A stretch of DNA of 36,205 nt, from IMG/VR virus record IMGVR_UViG_3300021256_000065. One strand, given 5' to 3'. Position numbers and translations under genes: made by a program. The notes beneath the pieces are model-generated. The model saw only the letters and a program-made list of their open reading frames with translations, made no database searches and was not told where the DNA came from. Shown in pieces: positions 3,798 through 25,242 of the stretch; the stretch's first letter is position 1; every line of letters begins with the position of its first letter. This stretch comes from a virus.

Positions 3798-6086
3798 ATG
3801 ATTTATGTAATCAAAAGAGATGGCAGAAAAATGCCATTCAACACAGAAAAAATAAAAAATGCAATTTTAAAAGCCTTTAAAGCAGTAGATGGTTAGATTT
3901 CAGATTATGCAGAAACTAAAGCAGAAAATATTGCCAACTATATTGAAGGCTATTGTGAAGAAGAACTTGAACCATTATCTATTGAAGAAATTCAAGATTT
4001 AGTAGAAAATGGTTTGATGTCAACAAAACGAAAAGACGTTGCTAAAGCCTACATCAAATATCGTGAAAATCGCACAAGAGAAAGAAATTGGAATAATAAC
4101 ATGATGCGGGCAGCGCAAGAAAAACTCACCGGATCCCGTATCGATAATCAAAACGCTAATGTCGATGAACATTCATTTGGGGGTCGCCGCGGCGAATTTG
4201 ATTCTGTTATTTCTAAACAATATGCTTTAGATAACTGTATGTCAAAGATGTCACGAGAAAACCATTTAAACAATGAAATTTATATTCATGATTTGGACGC
4301 ATATGCGGTTGGTATGCACAACTGTCTTAGTATGCCATTGGATGATTTACTTGCAAATGGTTTCAACACTCGTCAAACGGATGTAAGACCCGCAAATTCA
4401 ATTAATACAGCTTTTCAATTAGTTGCTGTTTTATTTCAGCTTCAAAGTTTACAACAATTTGGCGGAGTTTCAGCAACTCATCTCGACTGGACAATGGTTC
4501 CATATGTAAGAAAATCATTTTTCAAACATCTTAAGGATGGTTGTCAATACATATTAAAAATAAATTTTGATAAATATGAAACAGTTTTTGATGGAACTGA
4601 CCCAATAGATTTTGAAGGATATAAAACATTTCATGAAGCATATGATTATGCAATGGACATGACAAAAAAAGAATTAGAGCAAGCAGTTGAAGGAATGTAT
4701 CATAATCTTAATACTTTACAAAGTAGAAGCGGAAATCAGCTTCCTTTTACATCAATTAATTATGGAACTTGTACACTTCCTGAAGGGCGAATGGTTATTA
4801 AAGCTTTACTCAAGGGTAGTATTAAAGGAGTTGGTAAATTTCATAAAACGCCTATTTTTCCATGTGGTATATTCCAAGTAATGAAAGGTGTAAATAAAGA
4901 ACCTGGAACTCCTAACTACGATTTATATAGATTAGCTCTTGAATCAACAGCAAAAAGATTATATCCTAATTATGCTAATGTTGACTGGAGCGGAAATGCG
5001 GGTTATGACAAAAATGATCCAGCTACATATTTCAGTACGATGGGATGCCGCACTGCCAATGGTTTCGATATAAATGCAGACCCTGGAATAAATCCGCAAC
5101 GAAAAGATGGACGCGGCAATATTTGTCCTGTAACTATTATTCTTCCTACTCTTGCTATGGAAGCTAAACAAATGCACAGAGGCATGATAGAAGATTATGA
5201 AAATAGTAGTATTGAAAAAGGAATTGTTTATAAAGAAATCACTCTTGTTGATAATTTTATACGTCTTTTAGATAAAAAAATTCATGAAGCAAAAGATATG
5301 CTCCTTGAAAGATTTGAATATATTTGTTCACAAGACCCATCTTCTGCAAAATTTATGTGGGAAAATCATACCATGTTAGGTTATAAATCAGAAGAAGGAA
5401 TTCGTTCTGCCCTTAAACATGGCACAATAGTAATTGGTCAATTAGGTCTTGCAGAATGCTTACAAATTCTTATTGGTAAAGATCATACAACAGAAGAAGG
5501 TATGGAATTAGCTAAACGCATAGAACAATTATTTAAAGATAGATGCGCCGAATTTAAGCAGCAATATAAACTTAATTTTGGTGTTTATTACACTCCTGCC
5601 GAAAATCTTTGTTATACAGCGATGAAAAAATTCCAAGATAAATATGGAAAAATTCCAAATGTAAGTGATAAAGAATTTTTCACTAATAGTATGCATGTTC
5701 CAGTTTGGAAAGAAATTGATCCGTTTACAAAGATTGATATTGAAAGTCAGCTAACTGGATATTCTTCCGCGGGATGTATTACTTATGTAGAATTAGACAG
5801 CGGAATTTTACATAATATTGATGCATTAGAACAAATTGTAAATTATGCTATGGATAAAGATATTCCATATTTTGCATTAAATATTCCAAATGATTTATGT
5901 TTAAATTGCGGTTACACTGGAGAAATCAATGACGAATGTCCTATGTGTAAAAGCAAAAATATCCAAAGACTTCGTAGAGTAACTGGTTATTTAACAGGAG
6001 ATTATAAGACCGCATTTAATCTTGGGAAACAGCAAGAGACAGAAATGAGATTTAAACATTCAACATTATTAAGAGGATATAAATAA
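3798..6086 (+). CDS. nrdD: Anaerobic ribonucleoside-triphosphate reductase NrdD (class III RNR) with an N-terminal ATP-cone and one in-frame TAG at 3894-3896
   Basis: An RBS 'AGGAGAGG' sits upstream of the ATG at 3798. The ATP-cone 'VIKRDGRKMPFNTEKIKNAILKA' aligns with the N-terminus of E. coli NrdD. There is a C-terminal zinc ribbon 'CLNCGYTGEINDECPMCKS' and a glycyl-radical motif 'RVTGYL'. The frame is continuous through the TAG. The six-frame ORF track only begins at 4014. Confidence 0.9.
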
Positions 6087-6088
6087 AA

Positions 6089-6649
6089 ATGATAACAAAT
6101 ATTAAAAAATCTATTTTAGCAGGTATTCTTATTGGATTAGGTGTTTTAATTAATTCTCAATCAGATTATCCGCCTTTAGGAGCATTATTATTTAGTTTTG
6201 GGCTATTAACTATAATTCAAATGCAACTAAATTTATATACTGGTAAAATTGGTTATTTCACTCAAATGCACGAATGGAAATTTTTAATTACCGTACTATT
6301 ATTTAATTGCATTGGAATTGCGGCGACCGTAGGTTTATATGCACTCGGTAACCAGAACTATTCAAGTATTATATCTGCGGCTGCCGCGACAAAATTCGCA
6401 AAACCCGCATTAACGTTATTTATTAATGCTTGCTTTTGTGGGGCACTAATTCATTTTGCTGTAAAAAATAAAATAACTATATTAACAATTTTTGCAGTTA
6501 TGATTTTCATCCTTATCGGAGCAGAACACTGTATAGCTGATTTCCCATACCTTTTATTCAATTTATCTCCTATTAATATTTTAAAATTTATTGCAATTAT
6601 TTTTGGTAATTCAATAGGCGCAATATTAATTGAAAGGTTAAATAAATAA
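6089..6649 (+). CDS. Polytopic membrane protein of unknown function, encoded between nrdD and nrdG
   Basis: 186 aa with 5-6 hydrophobic segments. The ATG lies 2 nt after the nrdD TAA. Confidence 0.5.
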   Translation: MITNIKKSILAGILIGLGVLINSQSDYPPLGALLFSFGLLTIIQMQLNLYTGKIGYFTQMHEWKFLITVLLFNCIGIAATVGLYALGNQNYSSIISAAAATKFAKPALTLFINACFCGALIHFAVKNKITILTIFAVMIFILIGAEHCIADFPYLLFNLSPINILKFIAIIFGNSIGAILIERLNK

Positions 6650-6651
6650 AA

Positions 6652-7137
6652 ATGGATAGATATGCAGGTTTAATAACTAATGATTTTGCAAATGGAGTTG
6701 GCACTTGCGTCTCATTTTGGACGCAAGGCTGCCCGCACCGCTGTCCTGGTTGTCAAAACCCATAGACATGGGATTTTAAAGGTGGAAAAGAAATTCCCAC
6801 AGATATACGAGGACAAATTATTAAAGCTATTTGTGCAAATGATATTATAAGAAATTTTTCAGTCTTGGGCGGAGAGCCTTTATGTGAAGAAAATTTAGAT
6901 GAAGTTGAAAAAATTATTACAGCAGTAAGAACTGCTTATCCGCACATAAAAATTTTTGTATGGACTGGTTATACTTTAGAAGAGTTGTTAAAAAAATAGG
7001 ATGAAAAAATTAATAGTATTTTATCTCAAATTGATATTTTAATAGATGGTCGTTTTATTCAAGAGGAAAGAGATATTACTCTTGAATTAAGAGGAAGTAA
7101 AAATCAACGAGTCTTATATCGAGGAATTGATTTTTAA
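6652..7137 (+). CDS. nrdG: Anaerobic RNR activating protein NrdG (radical-SAM) with two in-frame TAG codons (6763-6765 and 6997-6999)
   Basis: Translation gives 'GTCVSFWTQGCPHRCPGCQNP*TWDFKGG...FVWTGYTLEELLKK*DEKINSILSQIDILIDGRF...RGSKNQRVLY'. This is collinear with E. coli and T4 NrdG ('GCVHECPGCYNKSTW...WVWTGYKLDEL...VLVDGKF...WRGSSNQ'). The six-frame ORF track does not report it because of the TAGs. Confidence 0.85.
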
Positions 7138-7577: not shown

Positions 7578-7594
7578 AAAGGAGGATATAAGAT

Positions 7595-8703: not shown

Positions 8704-8739
8704 TAGGGCAGATGATTTAATCATCTGCCCTTTATTTTT
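8704..8739. terminator. Bidirectional rho-independent terminator between the convergent + and - operons
   Basis: An 11-bp stem 'GGGCAGATGAT / ATCATCTGCCC' with a 3-nt loop, flanked by A-runs and T-runs on both sides. Confidence 0.65.
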
Positions 8740-9296
8740 TACTCAGTTTTAACTGGTAAATTTGTTTTGATATCTCTTCCACCATTTGCATATCTAGCAA
8801 AATCAACCACTGCTTTAAATTGTTTTGGATCAAAACTATCAACAATTTTTGCAGCAGCTTCCGCATTAGCGGGTAAATCATTAATTATTTGATTAATGAT
8901 TGCACCAACACTGGTATTATTTACAAAACTTGTTTCCTTAATGTTATTAAGTTGTTCAAAAAGTTCATTATATTCATCTTCATTGATAACTTTAAAGAAC
9001 TCTTCATAAAAACCATTACTCTTTAAAGTATCATATAATTTAAATTCATCTTCTCTTTGTTTTTCAGTGAAAGAAATGTTTGTATACATATAAACTAAAT
9101 TTAATTCAAAATATAAATTTAATTTAAACTCATTATACATTCCATTCTACAAAGATTTTTGTAATGTAATCATTAATAAATCATATTTATCTTGCGCTGG
9201 CAAATACTGAAGAACTTCTACCTTTTGTCCACAAAAATCAAAAGTTTTTACTTCTGTATTTACCTTTAACTTCATATTAGCATAAGATACTTTCAT
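8739..9296 (-). CDS. hypothetical protein, last gene of the late operon, with one in-frame TAG at 9147-9149
   Basis: The ATG at 9296 follows 'AAGGAGAtattgat'. The frame is continuous through the TAG into track ORF 8739..9140 and ends on TGA. Confidence 0.6.
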
Positions 9297-9357
9297 ATCA
9301 ATATCTCCTTTTAACTCTTTTTATTCAATCATATTATATGTTAATTTTTTTTATTTG

Positions 9358-10749
9358 TCAAGAAAAATTAACATTATATCCAACTGTAATTTTTTTCTGA
9401 TGCAATTCATTTAAAATATTATAAATTCTATCTTGGACTCTTTTCTATTTATGATTTTTTAAATAAATATTTGAAATTTGATTTAATCCACTAATCTAAT
9501 GAAAATTATTTTCTAATATTTCTTGGATATTTTTAACATAAACATCTCCAGTAGCCCTATTTATAAAAATAAAAACATTCGCATTTTTTGTTCCTTGTTT
9601 TAAGGGGTTACCAGAAGAAAAAGCTTCAAATGCAACCTCCTTTTTTACAATTTCATCTAAATTAGCTCTCCCCGGTCTTGCACCAGTTGCATGCCCAGTA
9701 TGAGAAACATGCATATTTAACCAATGATTTCCAAAGTCTACATATGATTCATAATTATTTAAAAATACTAATGTAGAAAATAAATCTACATCTTGTAATT
9801 TTGTTTTTGCTCTTTCGCTAGCCTGAACCGCATAACTTTTTACAGAAGCAAAAATATCCTCATCTTGTATACTAATCTAAGCATCAACTTTATTTTGTGT
9901 TGACCCTAAAGTATATTTTGTGCCATCTTTTGTACTTGTATTTAAAAAATGCTTATTTCTTTTTTCTCCAATTATTAAATTTTTATCAAAAGTAATTTCA
10001 GTTCTTTCCATACCTTTTACAGTATCTTCTAAGAATTTTGCAACCTACTCTTCTGCAAGATTTGCAGCTGAATCATCACAAATTGCAACTAACATTTCTC
10101 CAAATCTACCGCCAATTGCATTAGCAGTATTTTCATAGCGTCTTTCGCCTATTGCCTTTTCAATTCCACCAATGGTAGAATCTTCTAAAGAGTCTTTAGA
10201 TAAATGAGTATACTATTCGTATAATTTTATTAAAGTTTGCAAATTATCCTCTGATTGAGGCTGTTCTTCTTGATTAATTTTATTAATTAAAGACTAAATT
10301 TCATTATATAAATTTTTTGCTTTTTCGCGTCTTGCTTCTAATTCTTCTGCAGATAAAGAAAAAGCCCAATTTTGAGTAGTAGAAAGCGGAACTTTCTTTT
10401 TATTTTCAGTAGTCCATCCATTACCCTGAGAAATATTAATTACTCTATGAGTTCCAGTAACACCAGATGCTCTTTCCTATAATAAAAGATAAATTTCGTT
10501 AATTAATTTTTGTTGATGAATTTTCCATTCACTTTTTTCTTTTTCAATATTATTTGAAGTATTAATTTTTAATCTTTCTCGTAATTTATTTAAAGCGCCT
10601 TCATCAACTTTAGGTGAATTAATTCTTATTCTATTATTAATAACATCCATCGAATAATTTGGAATATTACTATCAGGATCTCTTCTAGTTATTCCATATT
10701 TTTTATAATTTTTATAATATAAATGAATGTATTCTCCTAGTGCGCTCAT
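9358..10749 (-). CDS. hypothetical 463-aa protein with a His/Gly-rich motif 'GNHWLNMHVSHTGHATGARPGR' and 7 in-frame TAG codons
   Basis: Manual translation joins track ORFs 10477..10749 and 9496..9714 with the unlisted segments between them. RBS 'AAGGAGtaat'. In-frame TAGs occur at 10477, 10294, 10213, 10045, 9877, 9496 and 9436. The real stop is a TGA at 9358-9360. Confidence 0.6.
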
Positions 10750-10821
10750 TATTACTCCTTAAATTAAAAAATAGGGAGGATTATATAATTAACCCTCCCT
10801 ATTCTATTTTTATTTAATTAA

Positions 10822-11826
10822 TTATCCCTGTACTACATCATCTGTTTCAGTTCCTTCTCCAGTATGAGTTCCATTGACGGAATCATCAATAGATTCATCA
10901 ATATTGAAACCAGTTGGATGCGGGAATAATGGCTTAACTTCATTCTTAGCCTCGGTTGCATCATCAACTACCTGAATAGCACAAAGAACTTTATTAGTCT
11001 TATTAAAATATGTATATCCAGGGAATGCGTCCATAGTAAAGGTGAAGGTACTAGGATCACCAGTAGCTGCCATTGAGAAAGTAAAGTTAGACTGAATTTT
11101 AACATTCGGGAATGTTAAATTAGCAGGTAAATCTTTACCATCGGACTGACGTCTAAACAATGTATCTGCTTCTACATAGTAATAACCACCGAAAGTACCT
11201 GCATCAATCTGAAGCTCAGATACAGTACTAGATGCCTTAATTACATAATAATCAACCATCACTGGCCCGCTACTTGCAATAGCGGTCGCTTCTGCAACAC
11301 CAGTAATCTGTAATTTCTTACCACCAGTAGCCACAGACCAGCCTTTTAAGATTTCACCAGTAAGATCACCATACTCATCTAACTTAATAATATAAATAGG
11401 AGCTGTAGGACAAATTGTTTCACTTTGCTCTAAAGCATCCGTTAAATCAATTTCTAATGTATTATTAGTAGCTGTAATGGTAGCAGTTGCTGCAGCGATT
11501 GCATTAGTAGTCTGATGGAAATGAACAGATTCACTAGATAATCCTTTAATAACACCAGCACCAGAAAGCATAGCGAAACTAACAGGAGAAAGTAAGGCGT
11601 CTTCAACAGTAAATGTAAGAGTTTTCTAACCTTCCCAAGCAATTAAACGAGTATTACCACGACCACCTGTTGCATATACCGTGGTAGCCGCACCTTCCAT
11701 CGAAGATGTTTTTGCAGTATCAAGATAGAATACGGGCTGACCTTTTTCAAAGGTCTTATCACCAATTTTTTGCTGATTCTTTGCCTTAAATACTACATTA
11801 GCAATTTCACGCACACCAAATTTCAT
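10822..11826 (-). CDS. putative major tail / tube-like structural protein with one in-frame TAG at 11626-11628
   Basis: Joins track ORFs 11626..11826 and 10822..11571 in the same frame. RBS 'AAGGAGGAAATCCAA'. The composition is Thr/Ala/Gly-rich and beta-rich, and the stop is TAA. The functional assignment is a guess from gene position and composition. Confidence 0.45.
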
Positions 11827-11868
11827 TTGGATTTCCTCCTTATATTTTTATACAAAATCTTATTATTT

Positions 11869-12618
11869 TTATTGTTTTGAATCATCTTCATAGATGTCTT
11901 TTAACCAGTCCTCAGGATCCTACATACCAGTTGCCCCAGCAACTTTAAATCGTTCCCAAGTATCATAATGCAATTTTAATTCAAACCGATTAAATTCATC
12001 CATCAATTGATAAACAGTATAATTCATTAAATCATTTATATTTTTTTGCTATCCAACAGCAAGAATAGATATATATCGACTTAAAATAGAGATTTTTGTT
12101 TTTGGCGCCAGCTTCGCCCTTTTTTCTTGACCTCTTTTAAGTTTATTTGCAATTTTTTGTGATAAACTTCCACTTGGATTATACTATTTATTCTTTTCAT
12201 TCCTTAGGCAAAATATATCAATTAAAATCTATTTAAAATGATCAAAATTTTTTTCATCAATTCTAGATACATCATTAGTCTATGGATTTCGTAATTGTAT
12301 TGTCTAAGGTTCCAACCTAATTTCATAGGTTGGAAACAACAAAGCGAGAATAGATAAAACATTTAATCTAGCCTATTGAGATTCTAAATTTTTTTCTCGT
12401 ATCATTGTCATTATTATATTAAAATTTGACAAGTTCGATAAATCAATTTTGTCCTAAGTGGAAAAGACATCTTTATTAAAATTTAGTAATTCGCATCCAG
12501 GCCAAAACCGTGACTATGTAATATAAGCAATTTCTTTTAATCGCGGCTGATGAATTGTAATTCTAGCTTCTGGAAATGGAATATCATTTCCCGATAATAA
12601 AAGTAATTCATCAATCAT
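11869..12618 (-). CDS. hypothetical 249-aa protein with 10 in-frame TAG codons that contains a 10-bp perfect hairpin
   Basis: The ATG at 12616-12618 overlaps the TGA of the upstream ORF (an ATGA junction). The frame has no TAA or TGA until the TAA at 11869-11871. The six-frame ORF track shows only fragments here. Confidence 0.4.
12310..12335. other. 10-bp perfect hairpin (TTCCAACCTA-atttca-TAGGTTGGAA) inside the coding sequence
   Basis: Read directly. It lies in gene 11869..12618. Confidence 0.5.
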
Positions 12619-12959
12619 TTTTTATTAATCCATCCATCATAATTAGGCATTTTATCATGCTAACTTGGTAATACATCATCCGTCCCATGAACAGCAGAAT
12701 AAGTTAACGTATAACCAGAAAGAGTTTCATCAAGTACGAGCTAATTACAACCTGTAAATTGGAAAGTTCCAAGCCCAGATAACCGCGCATTATTAAGAAT
12801 CCCATCAATATATCCACAAATTTTTAATGGCCTAACTCTAAAATTACCAAGATCCCAACAATCAGTGTGACATAATACATCAATATAAACATTGCAATCT
12901 CTAAATTGTGGATTTGTTATAGTTGGTTTAAAATTATCAAAAGAAAAAATTAAATAACT
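12615..12959 (-). CDS. ORF encoding '...CHTDCWDLGNFRVRPLKICGYIDGILNNARLSG...WINKK' that has no canonical start codon
   Basis: The open frame is -1 relative to the upstream gene and ends in an ATGA overlap with the downstream gene start, which suggests translational coupling. It contains 2 TAG codons and no ATG, GTG or TTG before residue 100. Confidence 0.3.
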
Positions 12960-13238
12960 TTTAACTTCCTAATGCTAAGACATCATAATTTTTGGTTCAA
13001 ATTTTATATATCCTAGCTATCTTAATTTAGCCAAACTCATATCTTTAATCGCATTTTGATAAATAACACTGTTTGTATCTAAACAATCTTTTGTATTAAT
13101 AACTAGTAATTTTTTTAATTCATTACTATAAGGTTGACTTTCTATAAACAATTTTCGTAAAATTGTTTCTAAATCTTTTTCACATGATAAAAAAGATGAA
13201 GTAAAATCAACTGGTCTTAAAATTAAATCTCTTTTCAT
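12950..13238 (-). CDS. hypothetical protein with 3 in-frame TAG codons
   Basis: Track ORF 13017..13238 ends on a TAG. The frame continues for another 21 codons to a TAA at 12950-12952. Confidence 0.4.
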
Positions 13239-13263
13239 ATGTTTTATCTACTCCTTTTATCTC

Positions 13264-14247
13264 TTAAAGGGCAGTAATTGTTACATCTAATGTAATATCT
13301 TCTTGGCCCTCAACTCTATATATTAAAGTAAATACTCCCAATTCACCAATAGAAACATTCAATGGAATAATTTTTAAAGAGCTATTTAGTGAATCTTCTT
13401 TATCTTTCCATCTTATATACCAATGACCATTTTCAGCATTATGAATTTCATAATATGCCTTGCTGTATTGCTGAACTGCAGTTGGTCCATCAATATATGC
13501 GGCGGTCTAGTCAATAGGATTTTCTTGTCCAGACTCATCGTGCTCAGCAGCGACCGCATCCGCAATAGAATTTTCAAAAAATTCATCTAAGAATACTTGA
13601 ATAATACCATCTCCATAATAGGGATCTACACCAACTACTTGCCAAGTTTTTTCTGTATTATATCTTGGATCTAAAACTTTTATAGTTTTAAATCTTTCAA
13701 AATAATTATTTGTAGTTTCATCTGCAGCAATATACATTACTAATGAATAATTCAATGTATTCCATTCAATACCCGCTTTTTGAGTCCATTCAATAGAAGT
13801 CTCAACAGGTCCTCGAATATAAACCCAATATAAATTATCCCCAACTTTAACCTATTGATCACATCTTCTAATCTCAGATCTAAAATAAGCATCTTCTTCA
13901 AGATACTCTAAATACACAAGCCAATGTGTATCAGTTTCTTTCCATGTAAAAACATCTCCAGGTTTAATATCAATATCAATCTCCCCCTAAGACGTTTTTC
14001 CCATTCTTGGAGTATTTAAACAAATGTCTTTATATGGGATGGAAAGAATTTTATTATCATAAGCTGGTTTATTTTTATCTGGATTAATTAAACACCTAAA
14101 TTCTTTTCCATCTGATAATATCGCTGTGGCAGCTTGATAAGAATATAATAAAGCTTTTTTTAGACTTTTTAATTTATCATTAATAAATCTTTGCTCTTGA
14201 TTGCCACCTTGATATTTTAACCTTTTATTTAATAATTCTAAGGACAT
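13264..14247 (-). CDS. hypothetical structural protein, 327 aa, with 3 in-frame TAG codons
   Basis: Joins track ORFs 13987..14247 and 13507..13755 with the segments between them. TAGs occur at 13987, 13852 and 13507. RBS 'GGAGAttaataaa'. The stop is TAA at 13264. Confidence 0.55.
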
Positions 14248-14274
14248 TTTATTAATCTCCTTTAAAGAATTTTA

Positions 14275-14615: not shown

Positions 14616-15209
14616 TTATCCCCCTGCCTTTTCATTGATAATTCTTTTATCAATTAAATCATCAACCGTGTAATTAACAGGAGTTCTAAGCAATCCAAGA
14701 GTAGATTTCATAATACCATTTTTATTAGGAGCCCTTCTTTTATATAAACGCTGAAGATGAAATCCTTCTCTTTCATAATCTTTCTTTAATTGAAGAAGCT
14801 TTTGCATATGATTAGCTTGAGAAGTAAATTTGAAATCAGGCCCGCTATATTTCATTCGTGTATTTTCTACACTAGCAAGCTGTTGACTTAACCATTCTAC
14901 AATCATATAAACAGCAAGAATATTTATTTCTTCATGAGTTAATGAATTATTAAAATATCCTTCATTATAAATAATTGCAGGCACTTCCTCATTATCACTT
15001 TCTATTCCTTGATAAGTTGATTCTTCTGTAACTTCAAGTAATTCATAATCCCATAAATTAATACGAGGAAATTCAAATTTTTCAATAGCAGAAAGTAAAA
15101 GCTGTTCTAACATTTTAAATGTATCTAATTCTGTTAATTCTAAATACATATCATCTGTAATTTTTGAAAGAAAGGAGTCATATACAAGTGAAAAAGCAGT
15201 TGTATTCAT
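14616..15209 (-). CDS. hypothetical head-proximal protein, possibly a connector or head-completion protein
   Basis: 197-aa ORF with RBS 'GGAGGtatatga', no TAG and a TAA stop. The function is a guess from gene position. Confidence 0.5.
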   Translation of the reverse strand: MNTTAFSLVYDSFLSKITDDMYLELTELDTFKMLEQLLLSAIEKFEFPRINLWDYELLEVTEESTYQGIESDNEEVPAIIYNEGYFNNSLTHEEINILAVYMIVEWLSQQLASVENTRMKYSGPDFKFTSQANHMQKLLQLKKDYEREGFHLQRLYKRRAPNKNGIMKSTLGLLRTPVNYTVDDLIDKRIINEKAGG

Positions 15210-15230
15210 TCATATACCTCCTATTAAAAA

Positions 15231-15818
15231 TTATTCTTTAGCAACTGGCTTATACCTACGTCCAGATGGCGCGGCGGCTGTATTATCAGATTTTATCGGA
15301 TTAGTTCTCCTCTTAGTAGTAGTTTGAGCATTCTCATTACTATCATTTTCTGTTTCACTATCATACTTTGTATTTTGAATTTCAATAGCTCTAGTAACAT
15401 CAAATCCTAATTTATCTTTAATAGCTTGACGCTTATTCATATCATTAAGCGGCATTTTAATTGATAAATCTTTAATCATATCTTTAATTACATCGGGAGC
15501 AAAATCTAAACAATCTAAAAATTGATCTAATGTACCAACTGTTAATAATTTTTTTACATCATCCTCTGAATAATGATATTCAGGCTCAGAATTTTGATTA
15601 AATAACGCAGCAACCACATTTTCATCAACAATTTCAAGATATTCTTTTAAAATTACATCTCCACCAGGGATGAAAGATAATTTTTCTAATTCATCAAATG
15701 AAATATCTTTACTTTCATGAGGATAAAAATTTCTATGAACTCCCAATTCAGGAACGTCATAACCAACAACGCCATTAAATTTATTAACGACTTTTACCAT
15801 TTCATTTTTGTCAATCAT
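15231..15818 (-). CDS. hypothetical structural protein
   Basis: 195-aa ORF with RBS 'AAGGAGttttaat', no TAG and a TAA stop. Confidence 0.5.
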   Translation of the reverse strand: MIDKNEMVKVVNKFNGVVGYDVPELGVHRNFYPHESKDISFDELEKLSFIPGGDVILKEYLEIVDENVVAALFNQNSEPEYHYSEDDVKKLLTVGTLDQFLDCLDFAPDVIKDMIKDLSIKMPLNDMNKRQAIKDKLGFDVTRAIEIQNTKYDSETENDSNENAQTTTKRRTNPIKSDNTAAAPSGRRYKPVAKE

Positions 15819-15897
15819 ATTAAAACTCCTTTTATCTCTTTATAAAAAAATAGGGGAGAAGAATTAAAATAATTATTCTCCCCTATTAAATAATATA

Positions 15898-16962
15898 TTA
15901 TTTTGTTCCAATATAGTTCTTAAGTGCGGTGTTGCGATAAATGCAGATTCCAGGATTAACCATATAAGTAGCCACACCAAGCTTCTGATAAGTCTGAATC
16001 TCAGTAGACCAGTCACGATTATCAAAGGACTTCACTTGAGCAGCGCCCTCAAATGCAACCTTCACAGGCTTTTCAGCACCAGTAGGAATAATATAAGCAA
16101 GAGAAGGGTCAATAACCTTATCTGCATATGTTGCAGTTTTACCGATATTATCTTCAAAAGACTGAGGAAGAATAATTACACGATGGCCCTTATAAACTGC
16201 AAAGTATCCATTATTCCAAATTTCCTCTTTCATCCCATCCGACCAAGTATCAGCACTTGCAGGAAGCATTTTAGCAGCAAATTCAAATGTGCAATAAATT
16301 GTGCTCTTTCCGCCGTAGCTGTCAGCAATCTGAAGTAACTTATCCATTTCAGCTTCGCTAAAGGATCCCTGTACAGACTTCTGAAGAGTAGGAACATTAT
16401 TAACTAAAGCTTCAAGAGCCTTAGCAATTTCTTTATAAACTGCTTCATCCATTCCTTCAAGCACAAGACTATAATAATCATTCATAGTCATGCGGCCATC
16501 AAGCAGTTCTTCCCACTCAATACGAGCAGCGCCGCCATAAGCAGCAGTAGGAACTTCGAGTGAATATCCGTCTAACTTGAAGACTTCGTATCTACCAGCT
16601 AAACCGACTCTAGTAACGAACTGTTTAGCACGTTTCTTGGAAGCTTCACTAATTCTTACCTTATAAACAGGCTTTACTCCCTGAGCAAAGGTACGAACAT
16701 CAGCAAACTGACCGTATGCTTGAAGCACCTTCTGAGGAAGAACCTCGGTAAGACCGACTTCCATTAATGTATAAATAAGATTTTTATTTTCTCTAAAATC
16801 TTGAGGAGTAGAACCAAGTTCATTTAACTCCTTAATAAATGTTTTATTCAGAGCTTCCGCTGAAAGCTTCTCTCCGCCGAAAGAATAAGCGACAGAAGGA
16901 TTTAATGAAGCCTTAGCATTGGCTCTAGCTAATTCAATAAGCTGATCTCTTGTTAATGCCAT
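15898..16962 (-). CDS. major capsid protein (putative)
   Basis: The real ATG is at 16960-16962, after 'ATAAGGAGGAAAAAGACA'. The track ORF started at an upstream GTG. The 354-aa protein sits after the scaffold gene and has no TAG. Confidence 0.55.
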   Translation of the reverse strand: MALTRDQLIELARANAKASLNPSVAYSFGGEKLSAEALNKTFIKELNELGSTPQDFRENKNLIYTLMEVGLTEVLPQKVLQAYGQFADVRTFAQGVKPVYKVRISEASKKRAKQFVTRVGLAGRYEVFKLDGYSLEVPTAAYGGAARIEWEELLDGRMTMNDYYSLVLEGMDEAVYKEIAKALEALVNNVPTLQKSVQGSFSEAEMDKLLQIADSYGGKSTIYCTFEFAAKMLPASADTWSDGMKEEIWNNGYFAVYKGHRVIILPQSFEDNIGKTATYADKVIDPSLAYIIPTGAEKPVKVAFEGAAQVKSFDNRDWSTEIQTYQKLGVATYMVNPGICIYRNTALKNYIGTK

Positions 16963-16979
16963 TGTCTTTTTCCTCCTTA

Positions 16980-17558
16980 TCACTGAACTCTCTGAATCTT
17001 AACGCCCTGTTGACCATCAGGCATTGTATAAATTTTTACAACCTTCCAAGCCATTCCAGTCACCCCAGAAAGACTAGAAGCTGCACTACCACCAGACTTA
17101 ATTACCTCTAAGAATCCTGTGGTCCCAGGTGTTAAATAATTACCCTCAGCAATTGCAACGCCAGTAGTTTCTACAGTATCAGAAGTATTAGCTTCAAAAG
17201 TATTAGTTGTAAAAATATCACCAATATTTGTCTTAATTAAACGCGGATACATCTTACCATCTGTAAAATCATCCACTTTATATACAAAATCTTTATGACT
17301 TTGTTTCCTTTCATCATAAAGTTTCTCTTCATTATAAACAAGCATAAATTCGCCATCACCAGTAAAATTTACTTCACCAGCCGCATAATCATATTTAGCA
17401 AATTGACCCTGTTCAAGTTGGGTAATTGCATTGCTTGGTTGACCACTTGCAGCCGTATTCCCTTTTGCAGGTAACTGAGCGTAAATCTGACCAGTGACAA
17501 TACCAGAAAGGTGATTAGGCTCAACTTGTCCATAACCTTTTCTCTTAATTGTTGCCAT
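16980..17558 (-). CDS. hypothetical head protein between the scaffold and capsid genes, possibly a decoration protein
   Basis: 'ATTAGGAGGatgctgaaaATG' points to the second ATG, at 17558, as the real start. No TAG. Confidence 0.45.
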   Translation of the reverse strand: MATIKRKGYGQVEPNHLSGIVTGQIYAQLPAKGNTAASGQPSNAITQLEQGQFAKYDYAAGEVNFTGDGEFMLVYNEEKLYDERKQSHKDFVYKVDDFTDGKMYPRLIKTNIGDIFTTNTFEANTSDTVETTGVAIAEGNYLTPGTTGFLEVIKSGGSAASSLSGVTGMAWKVVKIYTMPDGQQGVKIQRVQ

Positions 17559-17586
17559 TTTCAGCATCCTCCTAATAATTAAAAAA

Positions 17587-18918
17587 TTAATTAAGTCTTT
17601 CTTGTTCTTTAACAGCTTTCACCCAATCTGGCAGGCTGTTGTTCTCATCACCTAAATTATAGGTTATAATATCTTCTTCGTTTTTCTTTTCATCAGTCTT
17701 TTTTTCTAAAGAAAAACTAATTTTTTTATCAAAGCAAATTACAGAAAGTTTTGCTTTAATTTCATCTAAAGTATACTTCTCTTTATTACTAATAACATCT
17801 GCTTTATCTTCATCGGAAAGCATATAAAATTCAGCAATAAGAGCATCCTTCTTCTGATTATCAATTTCTTTCTTGAAATTTACAAGTTCTTGATATTGAC
17901 TCTGAAGCGTACTATAACTTTCTTTTAAAGTATTAAGCTCTTCTTCGAGTAACTCATACTTTTTAGCACTATTCTTATCATCATCATCCTTGTCATCATC
18001 AGGATCATCATCAGGATCATTTTCACCCTCATCATCCGCGGGCTTATCATCCTTTTCATTATCCTTTTTAACGTAATCAGTAGGAGCAGAAGTATCCTCT
18101 ATGTTATTATTAACCTCTGGAGTTGTTTCAGCATTCACTTCTTCCGCCTGAGTAAACTCAGTAACAGGTTCAATATTTTCATCTTCAACAACCACAGTGT
18201 CTTTAAGATTCTCCATCTGTTGTCCTCCTCCGTTCAAGGCATTCTTTAAATCTTGCATCATACTATAAAGTGTGTGCTTAAAATTATCATCTAATGTAAA
18301 TCTTGCACTTACATTTGGAGCCGTTACAGAAGCGCCTTCGAAGCAAGGCTCAACATCGTCTCCTAATATGCAAATTTTTTGAATAATTGCATCATTTATA
18401 ATAAAGAAATCCATTCCATTGTCATAACTAGTTTCCCAATGTCCCTTAACAGATTTCTTTTGAAGTTCCATTGATTGCGGACGCCCCTCTTCCACAGGTA
18501 AGCTGGATTCTGGGAATTGATCGGTCCAAAGGTATCCAGTAGTCATAAGATATTTATGAACAATAGTGTTACCCATGCCATCATTATCTTCAAAATTTTG
18601 GAACCAAACTTTTGCGTCTGGTGCTACAAATCCATAAGGAACAGTTTGACATTCGAATTTAATTCCTTCATCATCAATAATAACTTTTTCTCCATGATCT
18701 GTAAAATCTTCTTTACTTTCTCTATAATAACCAACAATAGGAGCGCCGCGAAGAGTTTTACCAATTTCAGCTGCAACTTCTTCTGTAATGAAAGTATGGT
18801 TTCTATTAGCTCCTACATAAAGAACCTTAATCTCACATTTTGACATTAAGGGATTAATATCAAGAGGTTGAAGATTTAAAAATTCAGGAGAGTCTATAGT
18901 CGCAACTGATTGATGCAT
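17587..18918 (-). CDS. scaffolding / prohead assembly protein with an acidic linker and a C-terminal coiled coil
   Basis: 443 aa with an acidic tract 'DDEGENDPDDDPDDDKDDDDK' followed by heptad-rich 'LEEELNTLKESYSTLQSQYQELVNFKKEI'. RBS 'AAGGAGAattttatt'. No TAG. Confidence 0.5.
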   Translation of the reverse strand: MHQSVATIDSPEFLNLQPLDINPLMSKCEIKVLYVGANRNHTFITEEVAAEIGKTLRGAPIVGYYRESKEDFTDHGEKVIIDDEGIKFECQTVPYGFVAPDAKVWFQNFEDNDGMGNTIVHKYLMTTGYLWTDQFPESSLPVEEGRPQSMELQKKSVKGHWETSYDNGMDFFIINDAIIQKICILGDDVEPCFEGASVTAPNVSARFTLDDNFKHTLYSMMQDLKNALNGGGQQMENLKDTVVVEDENIEPVTEFTQAEEVNAETTPEVNNNIEDTSAPTDYVKKDNEKDDKPADDEGENDPDDDPDDDKDDDDKNSAKKYELLEEELNTLKESYSTLQSQYQELVNFKKEIDNQKKDALIAEFYMLSDEDKADVISNKEKYTLDEIKAKLSVICFDKKISFSLEKKTDEKKNEEDIITYNLGDENNSLPDWVKAVKEQERLN

Positions 18919-18999: not shown

Positions 19000-20580
19000 T
19001 TAGCTCATTGATTCTTTATTTTGTAAAGTTTTTGTTGATTTTTCATCATCAGCTTTTTCCGGCCTGCCCGCGCCATCTCCACTTTCTGAACCACCCTACT
19101 TGCGATTAAGAACTTCCGCATTCATAGTGCTAGACATTAATGGAGGAATAAATACATTAACCAAATCAAGAATATCATTTTCAAAATAAGCAGTAGCCAA
19201 TACTGCACTTTGTGCTTGACCCAATGCTATTTGCGGCAACATTTTAGAATAACCTAATTGAGTATGTTCCTTATATTGTTTAGCTAAATCTTTATAATTA
19301 TAGATTGTAGTAGGAAGAATTTGTGCTCTATAAGTAACCTTTTTTGGACTTCGATTATAAGGTATTAATAGAGTATTTAAAAATGTTTCAAACTGTTGAA
19401 TCAAATTCCACATTGAAGCTTCATCATTTAAGATAGATTTTTCAAGAGCAATGTTACCATCTGTGTTAAATTGCATTTGTGAAACACCTGCTTCATTATA
19501 AACAGTTCGTTCCACTTTTTCCAAATCATCTGTAGTAGTTGATGTCTTATTATCAGCCATGTCTGCGACTTCAACATCCGCAAAAGTAGTTAAAACATCA
19601 ATTCCAATAGCCTTAGATAGCATTTGAACCGCATTGTTATGAAGTTGTTGCGCTTCATCTACATCAAATACTAAATCACCATTTTTATCAATAGGCATTT
19701 TCTGAATGATAATTTTTAACAATTGTTGTTGCATTTTGCGGCGGTCGAGGTCCTGTGCCGCATCCAAATCAATAATTGCAGGAATCACCGCAATAAAAGG
19801 AGGAAAATCCTCCCCATTTAAATTGAATTTAATAACAGAACCAATTTCAAGTAAATACCACCCAGATTCATCTCCAGGAAAATCAGGCTTTAATTTTCCT
19901 TGTCTATACAGTTTATATCCTTTTTCAAATTCTGGTGGAAATACTTTTAACATTCTTGCAAGTTGTTCTGCATTAGCAAACATATCATTAAAATATTTCA
20001 TATTAAATTCAACCGCAGGATGACCATTTACCATAAAACGCGATCTACAATATTTTGGTGGCAATTCTTGTACAATAACAGTTCCATTTTGTGCAATTAA
20101 ATAACCATAATAACAGCCATTTTTCATTACTTTTAATGCAACTTCTCCAAAAAATTTCTTCGCTTCAAAATTATCCAAATATGCTAAAACTTTATTAAAG
20201 CCCTCAAGAAGTTTTTCAGGTTTTATTGCTTCAGTATAGTAGGGTGTAACAAGCCAATCATATCTATACATATATGCCATATAACGACACAATCTTTGAT
20301 AAATACCGCTAATCTTATAAAAATAATTAGAAATATCTCTCATTTTATCAAGGTCGTTATAATAAATTGCTCTTAAAACCTGTTCTTTATCTGCTAATTG
20401 TGGATTTACTTTACGAAGGTCACCTAATTTAAGAATCGCATCAGATATTGACTTTACTCCAACTTTAATTTTTGCAAAGTCAATAGGCACATAACCAGTA
20501 GCCTAATTAGGAATTTGGTAATCTTCAGTTCCAATCATGTTAAAGCCTTTTTTCTTTATCTAAGCCATTCGATTAATCAA
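19000..20580 (-). CDS. portal protein (putative) with 1-3 in-frame TAG codons
   Basis: Track ORF 19096..20490 ends on a TAG and continues for 31 codons to a TAA at 19000. The frame is also open upstream of the GTG at 20490. The likely start is a TTG at 20578-20580, 9 nt after 'AAGGAGAGG'. The gene lies directly downstream of terL. Confidence 0.5.
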
Positions 20581-20600: not shown

Positions 20601-20957
20601 TTAATATCCAGCCGCCTCTAATATATAGTCATAATTTATTCTTGCTTCATCCCAATAGGGAATGATTACTAAATTGATTCCATGATCTCGACAATATTCT
20701 CTTTTTTTCATATCATTATATTGTTGTTTTCTTAAACCATTATATCCACCAAATTTTTCTTTAGCTTCATAATGTTGAATGCCTTGAAATTCAATAAGAA
20801 AATCAATATTATGCTAATCATCAAAAACCGCAAAATCAAATCTTAGCGGGCGGCCTGTATTACTTACTAAATCTGGAAAAGAGTATTCTTCTGCGAACTC
20901 TAATCCAGACTCTTGTAGAATTTCTTCTATTTTAATTTCTCCTCTAGATGCTCGCAT
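20601..20957 (-). CDS. small PD-(D/E)xK-type endonuclease (DUF559/Vsr-like fold) with one in-frame TAG
   Basis: Protein 'MRASRGEIKIEEILQESGLEFAEEYSF...GRPLRFDFAVFDD*HNIDFLIEFQGIQHYEAKEKF...' shows the pattern 'D...(I/L)EFxG..H' typical of DUF559 and Vsr nucleases. RBS 'GGAGAaaaaat'. TAA stop. Confidence 0.4.
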
Positions 20958-21018: not shown

Positions 21019-22755
21019 TTAAGCTGGAGTAAAAAATAAAAAGTCAGAAATATTACGTTTTTTCTTCTTTTTATTTAATTCCTATTCATAACGAATATAA
21101 TATAATCCATATATAAAAGCAGAAAATTTATCTTTCTTAATACTTCTATTGCTCTGTTTCAGAATGATATTAACTCCCTAATTTTCTTCTACAAGATTTA
21201 ACATTTGTTCTTTCAAAATTGAAGTTAATATAAAAGGCCGTAAATAATCATTTCTTTCATCAATATTCATATTTTGACCTTGTTTAGTTGACATTAATTT
21301 AGTTTTTGCCAACCCTTCATCAATTAAAAATCTAATCTTCCCACTAAACATCTGAGTTTGTGCATAACTATATGCCTATGTATTTATAGGTGCATTGGCT
21401 TTAATTAAGAATAAAATATCTCGTTCTGTCTCAGGAGTAACAAATTTTTTATATTCTGGATATTCATCTGTATTATAAACACCAAAAGGAGGTAAATATT
21501 CACCATCATCTGTATCTTGCGCTTTAACTAAATAATCAATAAGCCCAACTCCTAGACCATTAGCGTCGACTGCAATTCTACGCGGCCTATATTTATAATA
21601 CAAATGTTTTATATGAATACATTGAGTTTCAAAGTGTTCTGCATCATAAGTATAAATATTTACAAGAGTCTTATGAGCTGCCCCTTGAACTTGCGGAGTG
21701 ACCTTAAAAACACAAATCTCTGTAGTACATCCAACACGTCCAACGTCTATACCAAATACATAATAAGCATTTTTTGAAGACCGTCCGCTATATTCATACT
21801 ATGGTTGTAATAATACTCTATATTTATCAAATTTTTCAGAAGAAAAGAATGCGTTTTCTACATCACCAGACCAGATACTACGATATTCTCTATTGAATGA
21901 CTCATCATTAAAAGTACCTTGTAATCTTAATTGCTATACAAAATCTTCATCCAATAGACCAGAAATCACAGGTGTTTCATAAGTTCCGCCCATAATCATA
22001 TATTCTTCTGGATCAATGATAGAATTAATTAAAATTTCAATTAATTTGTGATAAGCAAAACTATTTTTCCATCCCGCTGTGGTTATATAAATTTGTGATT
22101 TATTAACATTCTCCTCTTTGTGGCGGCTACCATCTGAAAGTCTTCTATCAACGTTTGTAGTAGGAATAATAACTTCATTTAGAATATCACCATCAATTAA
22201 TACGCACTCTTCCATTAATCCACCAGTACGACGTTGACCTCTAGATGACTGCCTCGCCGCTAAGATATCAATAGTAGAGCCATTCTTAAATACATATTTA
22301 ACGTTATCTTTTGATTTAGTAGATACACCGCGATCCCAGTTAATTTCATTATTTAACCCAGGTATGAGTTTACATATTTCCTAAATTTTAGCAATAGTAA
22401 TAGAAGCAGCTTGCTCCTTTCCGCCTGTAGTCACAAATAAATGCGAATTAGGATATAAGATGCATCTAATCATTAATGCCATCATTGATAAAAAAGATTT
22501 AGAATATGCGCGCGGGAATGTCGCATACACATACCGATGCCGCATCACAATTCTAAGAAAAATTCTTTGATAAAATAAAAAATTAAATGTGCTATCTTTT
22601 CCTTTTATAAAATCCACAAAAATATCAGGATATTCCCTAAAATAAGCAATTAAATCTCTTAATCCATCTATGTCTTTCAATAGCCGCTATTCTGATAAAC
22701 CTTGTTTTTTATACTATCTGTCGGAGGATAACTGAAGTAATTCTTTTAAATTCAT
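21019..22755 (-). CDS. terL: terminase large subunit TerL with at least 7 in-frame TAG codons
   Basis: The ATG at 22755 follows 'AGGAGGcttaaacacga' and overlaps the upstream TGA (ATGA). The frame joins track ORFs 22381..22680, 21934..22215 and 21376..21603. Features include a Walker-A-like 'ATFPRAYSKS' and nuclease motifs 'FGIDVGRVG' and 'IAVDANGLGVG'. The stop is TAA at 21019. Confidence 0.75.
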
Positions 22756-24089
22756 TCGTGTTTAAGCCTCCTATTTATGTATTCTTCTTCAATTAAATCA
22801 TCATTTAAGTCATCATCATGATCTTTCATGTGATTTAAGGATTTTTTATAATTAGTAAAATCATCATCATCTAATTCCACATTATCTAATCCTTTAGCTT
22901 TTGCATCTTTTTTATCTTTTTTCATTTCATTTGAAATGCGTTTATCTTGCAAATATTTTTCAATTTCTTGCGCTAATGATTTATCTTCATAAATTAAGTT
23001 TTTATTATATGCTTTTAAATCTAAAATAATTTGATCAACAATATCTTGCGGCTAATTGCAATGATAACGTGGAATTTCTCCGCTATGAGCCTCAACAAAA
23101 TCAACAATAGCAGAAGCAGAATCAATTGTATCAGCATCTTTATCTTTATTCTGCGCCTATGTAAATTTTGCGGACTTCATCATAGAATCATAGACACGCG
23201 ATAATTTCTGGTAAGAATCGATGTCGCCGCAATCAATAGCCTCATTCATTTTGAGGGATGTCTTGCAAATCATTTTTAATGTATCAATACGTGCCGCCCC
23301 TTGAATATCAAATGAATTCATAAATTCATTATATAATTGTTCAAGAGCAACCCACTGACTGGGTTTATAAAGTCGGCCCCATTTAACCGCAAGATACATT
23401 TTATCATCATCATCTAAATTCGCACCAGGATCAACTATTTCGCTTTCCGCCATAAAATTTTGTTCTCTAAATGGATTTTTTGCTTGATTAAGCGCCTAGG
23501 CGTATGACTATGGTTGACCGTAAACCTGGAATATTTGGCCTAAATGTTCTCCTGTAATAGCATCCCCCCACCGCGGTAATTCCTTATTTTGAGTTTCTGT
23601 GCTAACAAGAGTCTGATACTAGGCGGGGGATATTTTTCCTTCGCTCAATTTAACTTTTAACGAGGCCTAATACCGCGCCTTCTCTTCTGCTTCGGCCTTT
23701 TCTTTTTTAGCCTTTTCCGCGTCCATTTCTTCTTGAATTTTTTTGGTATCCGCGTATCCATATTTGCTCCATTGTTTGAGCTTCATTTTAGCAAGATATT
23801 TACCAATAACAGACATTCCATTCATTTTATAAGGATCTTTCGCAAAAGCCTTATCTCTTAATACGTTCCATTCAGTAGGAATATAAGGAACATCCATTTT
23901 TTCAAGAATCCATTCAAAAGTGCTAGGATCAAAATTATCTATATGTGCGGTTAAGCATGGCTTGCAAATTTCACATTTACTACCATCTTTATATGTATAA
24001 AAATTTATTTGTGCAATTTTTTTGCCACACCGCTCGCATTGACATTTACCATTTGCGTCTTCTTGCTGTCCTTTTAATTTTTGCGCCAT
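22752..24089 (-). CDS. terminase small subunit-like protein with an N-terminal zinc ribbon and 6 in-frame TAG codons. It could be two coupled genes in one frame.
   Basis: Frame-continuous through track ORFs 23667..24089, 23157..23453 and 22752..22952. N-terminus 'CQCERCGKK...CEICKPC'. RBS 'AAAGGAGActtt'. The C-terminal TGA overlaps the terL ATG. Confidence 0.35.
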
Positions 24090-24138
24090 AAAAGTCTCCT
24101 TTCTTCATTTTTTATTTTTAAAAAAATTCTTTAATGAA

Positions 24139-25242
24139 TTAAAGACTTTTGTCCTTTTTCTTATTTCTACAACATTTACAAATACTATACCAACCATCCT
24201 TTGAAGTTCTATTTCTTGTAAAAAAATAAGGATGAGCAAGTTTTACCTAATGACAGCGCGAACATTTTTTCCATTTTCCTTTTTCTTCTATTGTATAATG
24301 CCAAATTATCCAATCTTCTTTTGCTTTTTCAGAAATAATTTTTGGGATTTTTTTCCGCCACACTGAAGATAAATATTCAATAGAATAAGTGATATTATAT
24401 TTATTTTTTATCTTTTCCGCAATTTCTTTATTTTGAAGTCCATCTATTTTATAAATCATAATATCATATAAAATAGGATAATCATCTTTCAATGCTCTTT
24501 CTATAAGATTATCTAGATCCTCCATTAAGTACCACCAATCATCGTCAAAATGGCCCCAAACGTCTTCTTTTAATTTAGAATAATTACACAATAGACAACA
24601 AACATGCTATGGATTAAATAGTGATACTAAACAGTTACTTTCTGGGTCAAAATTTTCATTTATTTTTATTTTTTCATTTAAATTTATTTGATTAGCGCTT
24701 TTGGTTATCCGCATCATAGTAATGGGCGGTTTGTAGATACTTTTTAATACATATTGATCTTGTCTAGCTTCAATTAATTGTTTTGTAAGTAAGAATTTTT
24801 GTTTTCCCTTAGCCGCCTTTTGCCGCGCCTCTATTTTTTTAATTTCTTCTCTTAATTCTTTTAATCCTGGTATAGTTATTATATCTTCTTCTGTGATTTG
24901 TATTTTTGGAACTAATAAAATGTTTTTATCGCCGCCAGTCATAAAGTTATAAATGCCATCCTCGCCATTCTATAACTTGGAAACTAGACCTTCATAGGAG
25001 ATTTCTCTTTTGTTGATAGTTACCATCCTATTGTCTGTTAAGACTTTCCGCTCTTTTTTATTATCATAAGTTTCTGTTAAGTATTTTGTAAGCTATTCTA
25101 AATAATAAGGAGTAAGTTTTTCTGAGGGAATATTATTAACAATTTCATGTACTATTTTATTACGCTATTGAGGGTCAATAATAGTATAATCCAAGGTGGG
25201 ATAAGGTCTTTTAGACTACATATTTTCTAACTCTTTTTCCAT
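24139..25242 (-). CDS. first gene of the late operon: putative transcription regulator with a sigma-70 region-4-like HTH and a C-terminal zinc ribbon. Contains 6 in-frame TAG codons.
   Basis: The ATG at 25240-25242 follows 'AAAGGAGtatttc'. The frame runs through track ORFs 24607..24942 and 24247..24591 to the TAA at 24139. 'YKIDGLQNKEIAEKIKNKYNITYSIEYLSSVWRKKIPKI' resembles sigma region 4.2. The C-terminus reads 'CSRCH...CKCC'. Confidence 0.35.

Follow-up and report, generated by a model that had tools for sequence, protein, structure and literature searches.

The stretch of DNA described here, IMG/VR virus record IMGVR_UViG_3300021256_000065, is 36,205 bases long with a GC content of 32% and is referred to in its full length as the window. 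It comes from a large SPbeta-like siphovirus of rumen metagenomes with a genome of roughly 135 kb. The subject of the analysis is the amber codon TAG, which the data support as a sense codon in this phage and which appears from alignments to stand for glutamate (Glu). Contigs from sheep rumen with at least 99% identity to the window over 11 kb were found in the ENA (assemblies ERZ28612969 and ERZ12302851), identity was likewise at least 99% with Logan run SRR873600, and the IMG/VR contig IMGVR_UViG_3300021399_000007 (133,873 bp) was 97.6–98.9% identical over most of the window.

The window opens with replication and nucleotide-metabolism genes on the plus strand (1-8569). These are DNA polymerase III alpha, cut off at its 5' end by the window, and guanylate kinase (together 1..3724; Pfam matches, no TAG), the anaerobic ribonucleotide reductase NrdD (3792..6086; Pfam NRDD, 5e-148, and an ATP-cone; one TAG at 3894), a membrane protein of the formate/nitrite transporter (FNT) family, the activase NrdG (6652..7137; Pfam Fer4_12, 3e-40; TAG at 6763 and 6997), three small open reading frames (ORFs) and dUTPase. 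A tightly packed late operon runs on the minus strand from 25242 down to 8739. Its first gene (24139..25242) encodes a sigma-factor-like protein with a C-terminal zinc-finger region (phrog_5767 'sigma factor', 5e-44; six TAG), and is followed by a 445-amino-acid protein of phrog_3314 with no assigned function (22752..24089; six TAG), the large terminase TerL of the YonF/SPbeta type (21019..22755; phrog_2, with two PHROGs of unknown function over its halves; eight TAG), a gene resembling HNH homing endonucleases (20601..20957; phrog_9084 and phrog_559; one TAG) and the portal protein (19000..20568; phrog_2739 portal, 2e-81; three TAG, or two if the start is the second ATG, M11). Matches to TerL were obtained by tblastn in cultured Firmicutes phages. 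Five central late genes of 443, 195, 354, 195 and 197 amino acids (14616..18918) contain no TAG in 1384 codons, and the 354-residue product is, by position, the putative major capsid protein.

The distal late genes (8739..14610, minus strand) encode, with their TAG counts, proteins of 111 residues (1) and 327 residues (3), YomW-like (5), YomV-like (9; 11869-12618) and YomU-like tail tube (1) proteins, and proteins of 463 residues (7; 9358-10749) and 185 residues (1), the last of the operon. They were identified by PHROG matches, except for the 463-residue protein, which matched no PHROGs or Pfam family. A Pfam search with ten late proteins gave no match, and the names YomU_Tube, YomV_2nd and YomW were taken from precomputed Pfam annotations of near-identical contigs. 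About 21 small early-type genes are divergently transcribed on the plus strand (25382..36205); they contain no TAG and all end in TAA or TGA.

In the curated gene set of the window, 54 in-frame TAG codons were counted in 14 otherwise intact, conserved genes, and in-frame TAA or TGA codons were absent. The 47 curated genes ended in TAA (33) or TGA (14) and never in TAG. ORFs of at least 100 codons, taken from stop to stop, covered 65% of the window under genetic code 11 and 86% with TAG as sense, and the region from 8.7 to 25.3 kb then turned into a single contiguous gene array. Ribosome-binding sites of the AGGAG type were located upstream of the starts at 9296, 10749, 22755 and 25242, and ATGA-type overlaps at 12615/12618 and 22752/22755. 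Because TAA trinucleotides are commoner than TAG in all frames over the whole window, the interruption of frames by TAG only is not a matter of chance. A TAG near the start of the dUTPase gene (8111) was left uncounted, being upstream of the start chosen by an independent gene call (149-residue product).

The same genes were followed in relatives. TerL of 27 independent IMG/VR relatives contained 1–17 TAG codons and no other stop, and in 18 further, more distant relatives (61–76% identity) TerL was free of TAG. When all aligned genes were taken together, recoded loci reached about 20 TAG per 1000 codons, and TAG was absent from 34 related loci with more than 2000 aligned codons. These observations support TAG as a sense codon used mostly in late genes, with TAA and TGA as the true stops. 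The original prediction, made from the letters of the window, had proposed such a reassignment, and its starts, overlaps and expected gain in coding density under the altered code were borne out; its per-gene counts were right except for gene 11869-12618, which has nine TAG codons and not ten. It had also allowed that the frames might prove unconserved and the TAG columns without a consistent residue. The conservation of TAG-bearing TerL among relatives and the consistent Glu columns described below are the opposite of that outcome.

The prediction had placed the recoding 'throughout' the phage, which was too broad. TAG density per 1000 codons was 13.1 in the 12 late genes that carry it, 1.1 in replication genes and 0 in early genes. 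It was absent from 21 early genes and from the five central late genes, the putative capsid gene included, and occurred only three times in the replication block. Within the 12 TAG-bearing late genes, TAG amounts to about 16% of the inferred Glu codons. Relatives carried TAG in 4 of 41 sequences of the 354-residue family and 2 of 42 of the 195-residue family, and frequently in the 443-residue family, though the window copy has none. The enrichment of the recoded codon in late genes and its avoidance in early genes, a feature of late-gene gating, are thus both present in the window. If TAG is decoded less efficiently, through competition with release factor 1, its absence from the most abundant virion genes would be in keeping with this.

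The residue encoded by TAG was examined in codon alignments that joined 25 of the window's gene families to relatives from IMG/VR and the ENA (168 loci). The public protein database contained thousands of full-length terminase homologues with Glu or glutamine (Gln) at the TAG positions of the window and many other alternations of the two; in public proteins of the clade (terminase homologues P0001-P0120) Gln stood wherever the DNA had TAG, which suggests that a gene caller using genetic code 15 had written it. The test was therefore done on DNA. At the 47 TAG-bearing columns of TerL, the other members of the recoded clade had GAA (605), GAG (146), GAT (125), CAA (25) and CAG (3), and the TAG-free clade had Glu 553, aspartate (Asp) 140 and Gln 15 times. 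Over all 25 families there were 448 TAG columns, where the majority residue of the sequences without TAG was Glu at 257, Asp at 49, lysine (Lys) at 34 and Gln at 33. When every sense codon was entered as a candidate model in a likelihood comparison, the TAG profile was best fitted by GAG, by 158 nats over CAA and 232 over CAG.

A strict set was made by keeping only columns at least 90% conserved in the TAG-free sister clade. The 80 strict TAG columns were Glu at 70, Asp at 6, Gln at 1 and Lys at 1. Under the same filter GAG columns were 86% Glu, CAG 82% Gln, AAG 88% Lys, TAC 87% tyrosine (Tyr) and TGG 78% tryptophan (Trp), so that the Glu share at TAG (88%) is on a par with that of a genuine Glu codon. 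The original prediction had taken Gln as the default residue and proposed this comparison of homologous columns, which decided against its own default.

The sites of the window itself gave a similar picture. Glu was the majority residue at 34 of 47 evaluable TAG sites and Gln at two. In TerL all eight TAG columns had a Glu majority in relatives, and position 558 was invariantly Glu in 14 relatives, Enterococcus phage H1 and Geobacillus virus E3 among them. The family of the 445-residue protein had 78 TAG columns, with Glu in the majority at 42 and Gln at 6. The TAG column at residue 38 of NrdG had Glu in 21 relatives and Gln in one, the aligned residue of Escherichia coli PflA being Asp; the TAG column of NrdD had Glu in 10, Tyr in 6 and Asp in 3. 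In the cultured standard-code references H1 and E3, TAG columns were Glu in 35% and Gln in 6%, which resembles the GAG control columns with 30% Glu and not the CAG control columns with 14% Gln and 13% Glu. A comparison of a terminase TAG column with a known catalytic Glu was attempted, and no solved homologue was found with the single sequence or a 14-sequence profile. Judged by these alignments, TAG behaves as a Glu codon and not as a Gln codon.

Searches of the window for transfer RNAs (tRNAs) with ARAGORN, also at lowered thresholds, and with Rfam at permissive E-values gave nothing credible. A tRNA with a CUA anticodon, for which the original prediction had recommended a search of the remaining genome, does exist beyond the window. 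Contig IMGVR_UViG_3300021399_000007 was walked in 10-kb steps from polymerase III, primase and two early genes; the first four steps were without a CUA tRNA and the fifth contained it. There a tRNA array lies on the early-gene strand, roughly 23 kb past the position of the window's 3' end, in the order Ile(UAU), a TAG-free sigma-70-like gene, Asn, Lys, Asp, tRNA(CUA) and Met. The sequence of tRNA(CUA) is CGCCCGAUAGUGGAGUGGUUUAACACAGCGGUCUCUAAAACCGCGGAUCCUGGGUUCGAAUCCCAGUCGGGUGA, plus a CCA end. It folds as an ordinary cloverleaf and scored 64.7 bits on the Rfam tRNA model (threshold 29). Near-identical copies were present in the recoded contigs 3300021399_000007, 3300021256_000064 and 3300021400_001206, and two pattern scans of IMG/VR recovered the same tRNA with 0–2 differences in recoded genomes with 11 and 17 terminase TAGs, as well as variants whose acceptor and anticodon stems carry compensatory changes. 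All ten IMG/VR tRNAs sharing the D-arm had the anticodon CUA.

At the acceptor end of tRNA(CUA), position 73 is A (C in one variant group), the 1:72 pair is C1-G72 or G1.U72 and never U1-A72, and a G.U pair occurs at 1:72 or 2:71. Its D-arm has U11-A24, a G13.A22 mismatch and a 9-nucleotide D-loop, AGYGGYUUA. The tRNA-Glu(UUC) genes of the family have A73 and an identical D-loop in common with it, together with a purine13.A22 mismatch and a G.U pair close to the acceptor end. Once the anticodon arm was masked, a tRNA-Glu(CUC) came out as the closest among about 200 phage tRNAs, with Gln and Trp tRNAs ranking low. The combination of a weak 1:72 pair and G73 that marks tRNA-Gln was not found in tRNA(CUA) of the clade. 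Trp was considered as a meaning of TAG and rejected; it was never the majority residue at TAG columns, and the acceptor end of the tRNA is not Trp-like.

Two further sets of tRNAs were observed in relatives. A tRNA with the anticodon UUA, found in a single contig (L284 2898-2972 (+), that is, IMGVR_UViG_3300021399_000007), lies about 1.3 kb downstream of tRNA(CUA). Its score on the Rfam tRNA model was 51.3 bits, its anticodon stem consists of A and U only, its D-arm is Glu-like (GUCA...AGAC) and position 73 is G; it would read the ochre codon TAA and possibly TAG, and TAA is nonetheless the main stop. An odd cluster of RNAs was present about 5 kb upstream of the terminase in three near-identical recoded relatives (L025 3636-4237 (-), also L050 and L026). 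It comprises a tRNA-Leu(CAA), a type-II-like tRNA, a 98-nucleotide tRNA with an 8-nucleotide anticodon loop (GAAG or AAAG as a four-base 'anticodon') and a long variable region without pairing, a segment of about 250 nucleotides judged GC-rich and self-complementary by eye only, and a tRNA-like element with a 3-nucleotide anticodon loop (51 bits). This cluster was rejected as a source of the suppressor, since none of its members has a CUA anticodon and the window contains no equivalent of it.

From these results it is very probable that TAG is a Glu codon used mainly in late genes (packaging, portal, tail), and a Glu-accepting amber suppressor supplied by the phage would gate late translation. 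Early genes, which avoid TAG, would be translatable by a host with the standard code, and the tRNA array would be transcribed with them or after them. The suppressor would presumably be charged with Glu by the glutamyl-tRNA synthetase (GluRS) of the host and would escape amidation to Gln. Before it is made, late mRNAs would terminate at TAG; once charged, it would permit full translation of the TAG-bearing late mRNAs, starting with the sigma-like first late gene. We infer the charging enzyme, the escape from amidation, the timing and the gating role from the arrangement described.

Several points weigh against this interpretation. The residue is derived from alignments alone, and about 12% of the strict TAG columns are not Glu, although the GAG control is equally noisy. 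The tRNA was found outside the stretch of the window, in the contig about 98% identical to it and in other relatives, and some recoded relatives, such as the L050 genome, match neither of the two tRNA patterns. The likeness of tRNA(CUA) to tRNA-Glu outside the anticodon arm is moderate, the variable loop having five nucleotides in the former and four in tRNA-Glu genes of the family. In a whole-sequence blastn search of GenBank phages the closest annotated tRNAs were mostly tRNA-Trp, because the anticodon arm, CGGUCUC[C/U]AAAACCG, is Trp-like. Finally, GluRS of E. coli reads the anticodon strongly, and Glu charging of a CUA tRNA is not self-evident.

Among the alternatives, the one that survives best is ambiguous decoding, in which TAG is read by more than one tRNA, or a non-discriminating GluRS loads the suppressor with Glu and amidation then converts part of it, giving a mixture of Glu with Gln or another residue while selection merely favours Glu-tolerant sites. 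The UUA tRNA of one close relative could read TAG along with TAA, phAss-1 (described below) has three different CUA tRNAs, and 10 of the 80 conserved TAG columns are not Glu. The equal Glu shares at TAG and GAG columns nevertheless give no hint of relaxed site choice, the UUA tRNA is confined to one contig, and tRNA(CUA) lacks the U1-A72 pair, the main recognition feature of the amidotransferase GatCAB. A mixture of residues at TAG is therefore regarded as quite unlikely.

The standard phage 'code 15', with TAG read as Gln through a Gln-type amber suppressor, has precedent in the crAss-like, Lak and phAss-1 phages; public gene callers already place Gln at TAG in these very genes, and Gln is the majority at 33 of the 448 TAG columns. 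For phAss-1 (OQ749652) the authors assigned TAG to Gln (PMC10607447). This phage is a distant relative with a TerL about 44% identical and a syntenic late operon, and in the same alignments its TAG codons stood mostly on conserved Gln columns (for example Gln 24/24, Gln 74, Gln 62 and Gln 54). The column method therefore separates the two residues, as it recovered Gln for phAss-1 and Glu for the rumen clade. In the rumen clade only one of the 80 strict TAG columns holds a conserved Gln of standard-code homologues, against 70 with Glu; close relatives exchange TAG with GAA or GAG and not with CAA or CAG; and the likelihood prefers GAG by more than 150 nats. The tRNAs differ as well. In phAss-1, the three suppressors and the tRNA-Gln genes alike show a weak 1:72 pair and G73, features lacking in the rumen clade suppressor with its A73, U11-A24, G13.A22 and Glu-type D-loop. 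Reading TAG as Gln here was accordingly judged very improbable. The three phAss-1 suppressors are also structurally different from one another; one (L081 12442-12532; OQ749652 62445-62532) is about 90 nucleotides long with a long variable arm, and has its anticodon arm and T-arm in common with the suppressor of the rumen clade.

It is hardly credible that the TAG-bearing frames belong to pseudogenes, that they result from sequencing or assembly errors, or that their TAG codons are passed by low-level programmed readthrough. Apart from the stop codons themselves and the lack of a tRNA within the window, nothing favours these readings, and opposed to them are the 54 TAG codons beside no in-frame TAA or TGA, the recurrence of TAG in the same genes, at Glu columns, in many independent assemblies, the failure of TAG to terminate any gene, its presence in essential genes (terminase, portal, tail tube) and the dedicated CUA tRNA conserved across the clade; the pseudogene and assembly-error readings are excluded by these observations. 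Pyrrolysine or another lysine-like residue is just as remote, for although ARAGORN labels the CUA tRNA 'tRNA-Pyl' and Lys comes third among the majority residues of TAG columns (34/448), that label is the program's naming default for any CUA tRNA, the present tRNA is an ordinary cloverleaf (9-nucleotide D-loop, 5-nucleotide variable loop, 64.7 bits on the general model) where tRNA-Pyl is structurally atypical, Lys is conserved at one of the 80 strict columns, and the roughly 78 kb examined, the annotated window genes among them, showed no pyl genes.

With TAG taken as Glu in the rumen clade and Gln in phAss-1, a hypothesis that would account for both assignments may be considered. Many Bacillota lack glutaminyl-tRNA synthetase (GlnRS) and make Gln-tRNA by charging tRNA-Gln with Glu, which is then amidated by GatCAB. 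Non-discriminating GluRS tolerates variation at anticodon position 36, and GatCAB recognises U1-A72 and the D-loop. In such hosts any CUA tRNA accepted by a non-discriminating GluRS would first receive Glu, and whether Glu was kept or turned to Gln would depend only on acceptance by GatCAB (U1-A72 pair, D-loop size). Glu would remain on a CUA tRNA that lacks U1-A72 and has a D-loop of Glu size, and a Gln-type CUA tRNA, as in phAss-1, would end with Gln. It is tentatively proposed, as a possibility rather less probable than its negation, that the clade uses a natural UAG-to-glutamate code on a presumed standard-code host, and that two related phage lineages took both routes, phAss-1 with a Gln-type and the rumen clade with a Glu-type suppressor.

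Other features of the locus were noted in the course of annotation. PHROGs 15503 and 24618, both of 'unknown function', match TerL at residues 19-233 (N-terminal) and 350-575 (C-terminal) and look like families made from code-11 fragments of recoded terminases. In several relatives (L027, L029, L047, L061, L068, L075 and L076) the terminase match is about 2.5 kb long and not 1.7 kb, which implies that an intron, intein or homing endonuclease has been inserted into the gene; in the window, unlike these enlarged loci, the HNH gene is free-standing (20601-20957), between terminase and portal. The gene for the 463-residue protein had just two close homologues among the 168 related loci searched, and its position is a hypervariable or mosaic slot of the tail module, since the contig 98% identical to the window does not align across it.

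The FNT-family gene (6089-6649, plus strand; 186 amino acids; Pfam formate/nitrite transporter family, 2.6e-13) is placed between NrdD and NrdG and is an unusual cargo within an anaerobic ribonucleotide reductase module. Formate is a known reductant of class III ribonucleotide reductase. The gap of 170 nucleotides between the convergent operons (8569-8739) gave weak palindromic Rfam matches on both strands and is probably a bidirectional terminator. An early region of about 0.9 kb (27425-28347) had no Rfam match, and its only ORF of at least 50 codons was one of 53 codons with an in-frame TAG.

By megablast against GenBank phages the sole match was a 12-kb fragment with 74% identity. An exact-protein look-up with the guanylate kinase of the window returned contigs that end inside polymerase III. 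In GTDB genomes, relatives were found on contigs whose bins bear the names Erysipelotrichaceae, Endomicrobiaceae and Clostridium. The bin labels are inconsistent with one another and the contigs are probably mis-binned phage contigs, and an assignment of the host from them was rejected. The contig IMGVR_UViG_3300021256_000064 (L214/L240; 144,402 bp) has the primase gene at both ends. This implies that the two ends overlap directly by about 2 kb, and that the genome measures about 142 kb and is circular or circularly permuted.

The recoded rumen phages were compared with known systems. They resemble the TAG-to-Gln phages (NCBI table 15: crAss-like, Lak, and phAss-1 or 'Phassvirus') in that TAG is enriched in late structural and packaging genes with early genes in the standard code, TAG does not serve as a stop, a CUA suppressor lies in a phage tRNA array (here in relatives of the window), and reliance on a host aminoacyl-tRNA synthetase is presumed; they differ in the residue, Gln there and Glu here. 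The large SPbeta-like siphoviruses of Bacillota (YonF terminase; YomU, YomV and YomW; Enterococcus phage H1 and Geobacillus virus E3) have a similar genome size and a homologous and syntenic terminase, portal, tube and neighbouring genes, but H1 and E3 use the standard code. The only tabulated code with TAG as Glu is, to our knowledge, the nuclear code of peritrich ciliates (NCBI table 30, TAA and TAG both Glu). That code is eukaryotic and genome-wide and reassigns TAA too, whereas in the phage TAA still ends most genes (33 of 47), and it is a virus of a presumed standard-code host that carries the reassignment.

Stop-codon recoding in phages, its late-gene bias and suppressor tRNAs are already established. 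Borges et al. (bioRxiv 10.1101/2021.08.26.457843) state that TAG-to-Gln and TGA-to-Trp were the only changes they observed in phages with a code unlike that of the host, and reasoned that GlnRS and tryptophanyl-tRNA synthetase (TrpRS) are the synthetases open to repurposing. The window agrees with their late-gene gating model in its late and early TAG densities (13.1 and 0 per 1000 codons), in the tRNA on the early-gene strand of the relative, and in the sigma-like late regulator with six TAG; it departs from the model in the amino acid and in the putative capsid block, the most abundant virion genes, which is free of TAG. The new element would be the amino acid. A full-text literature search for TAG- or UAG-to-Glu recoding in phages or bacteria found no report, and TAG-to-Glu would be a code variant for which no phage report was found.

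A practical consequence concerns annotation. In the NCBI taxonomy ('Caudoviricetes code 15 clade') and in annotation tools, TAG recoding is taken to mean Gln; table 15 and callers based on prodigal-gv put Gln at every recoded TAG, and the public proteins of this clade carry Gln where the evidence says Glu. If TAG is Glu, public protein sets hold systematic Glu-to-Gln mis-translations, an acidic residue being replaced by an amide even at invariant Glu positions, and structure prediction, proteomics databases and phylogeny would be affected. With the tRNA sequence in hand, the tolerance of GluRS for a CUA anticodon and the escape from amidation are directly testable, and a natural Glu-inserting amber suppressor scaffold, if confirmed as such, would be useful for genetic-code engineering.

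For the phages themselves, the result contradicts the published observation that TAG-to-Gln and TGA-to-Trp are the sole recodings where phage and host codes differ. It means that large Bacillota phages of one related group would have taken the same stop codon for two different amino acids. A UAG-to-Glu clade beside the Gln-type phAss-1, if true, would overturn the generalisation that phages co-opt only GlnRS and TrpRS for stop recoding.

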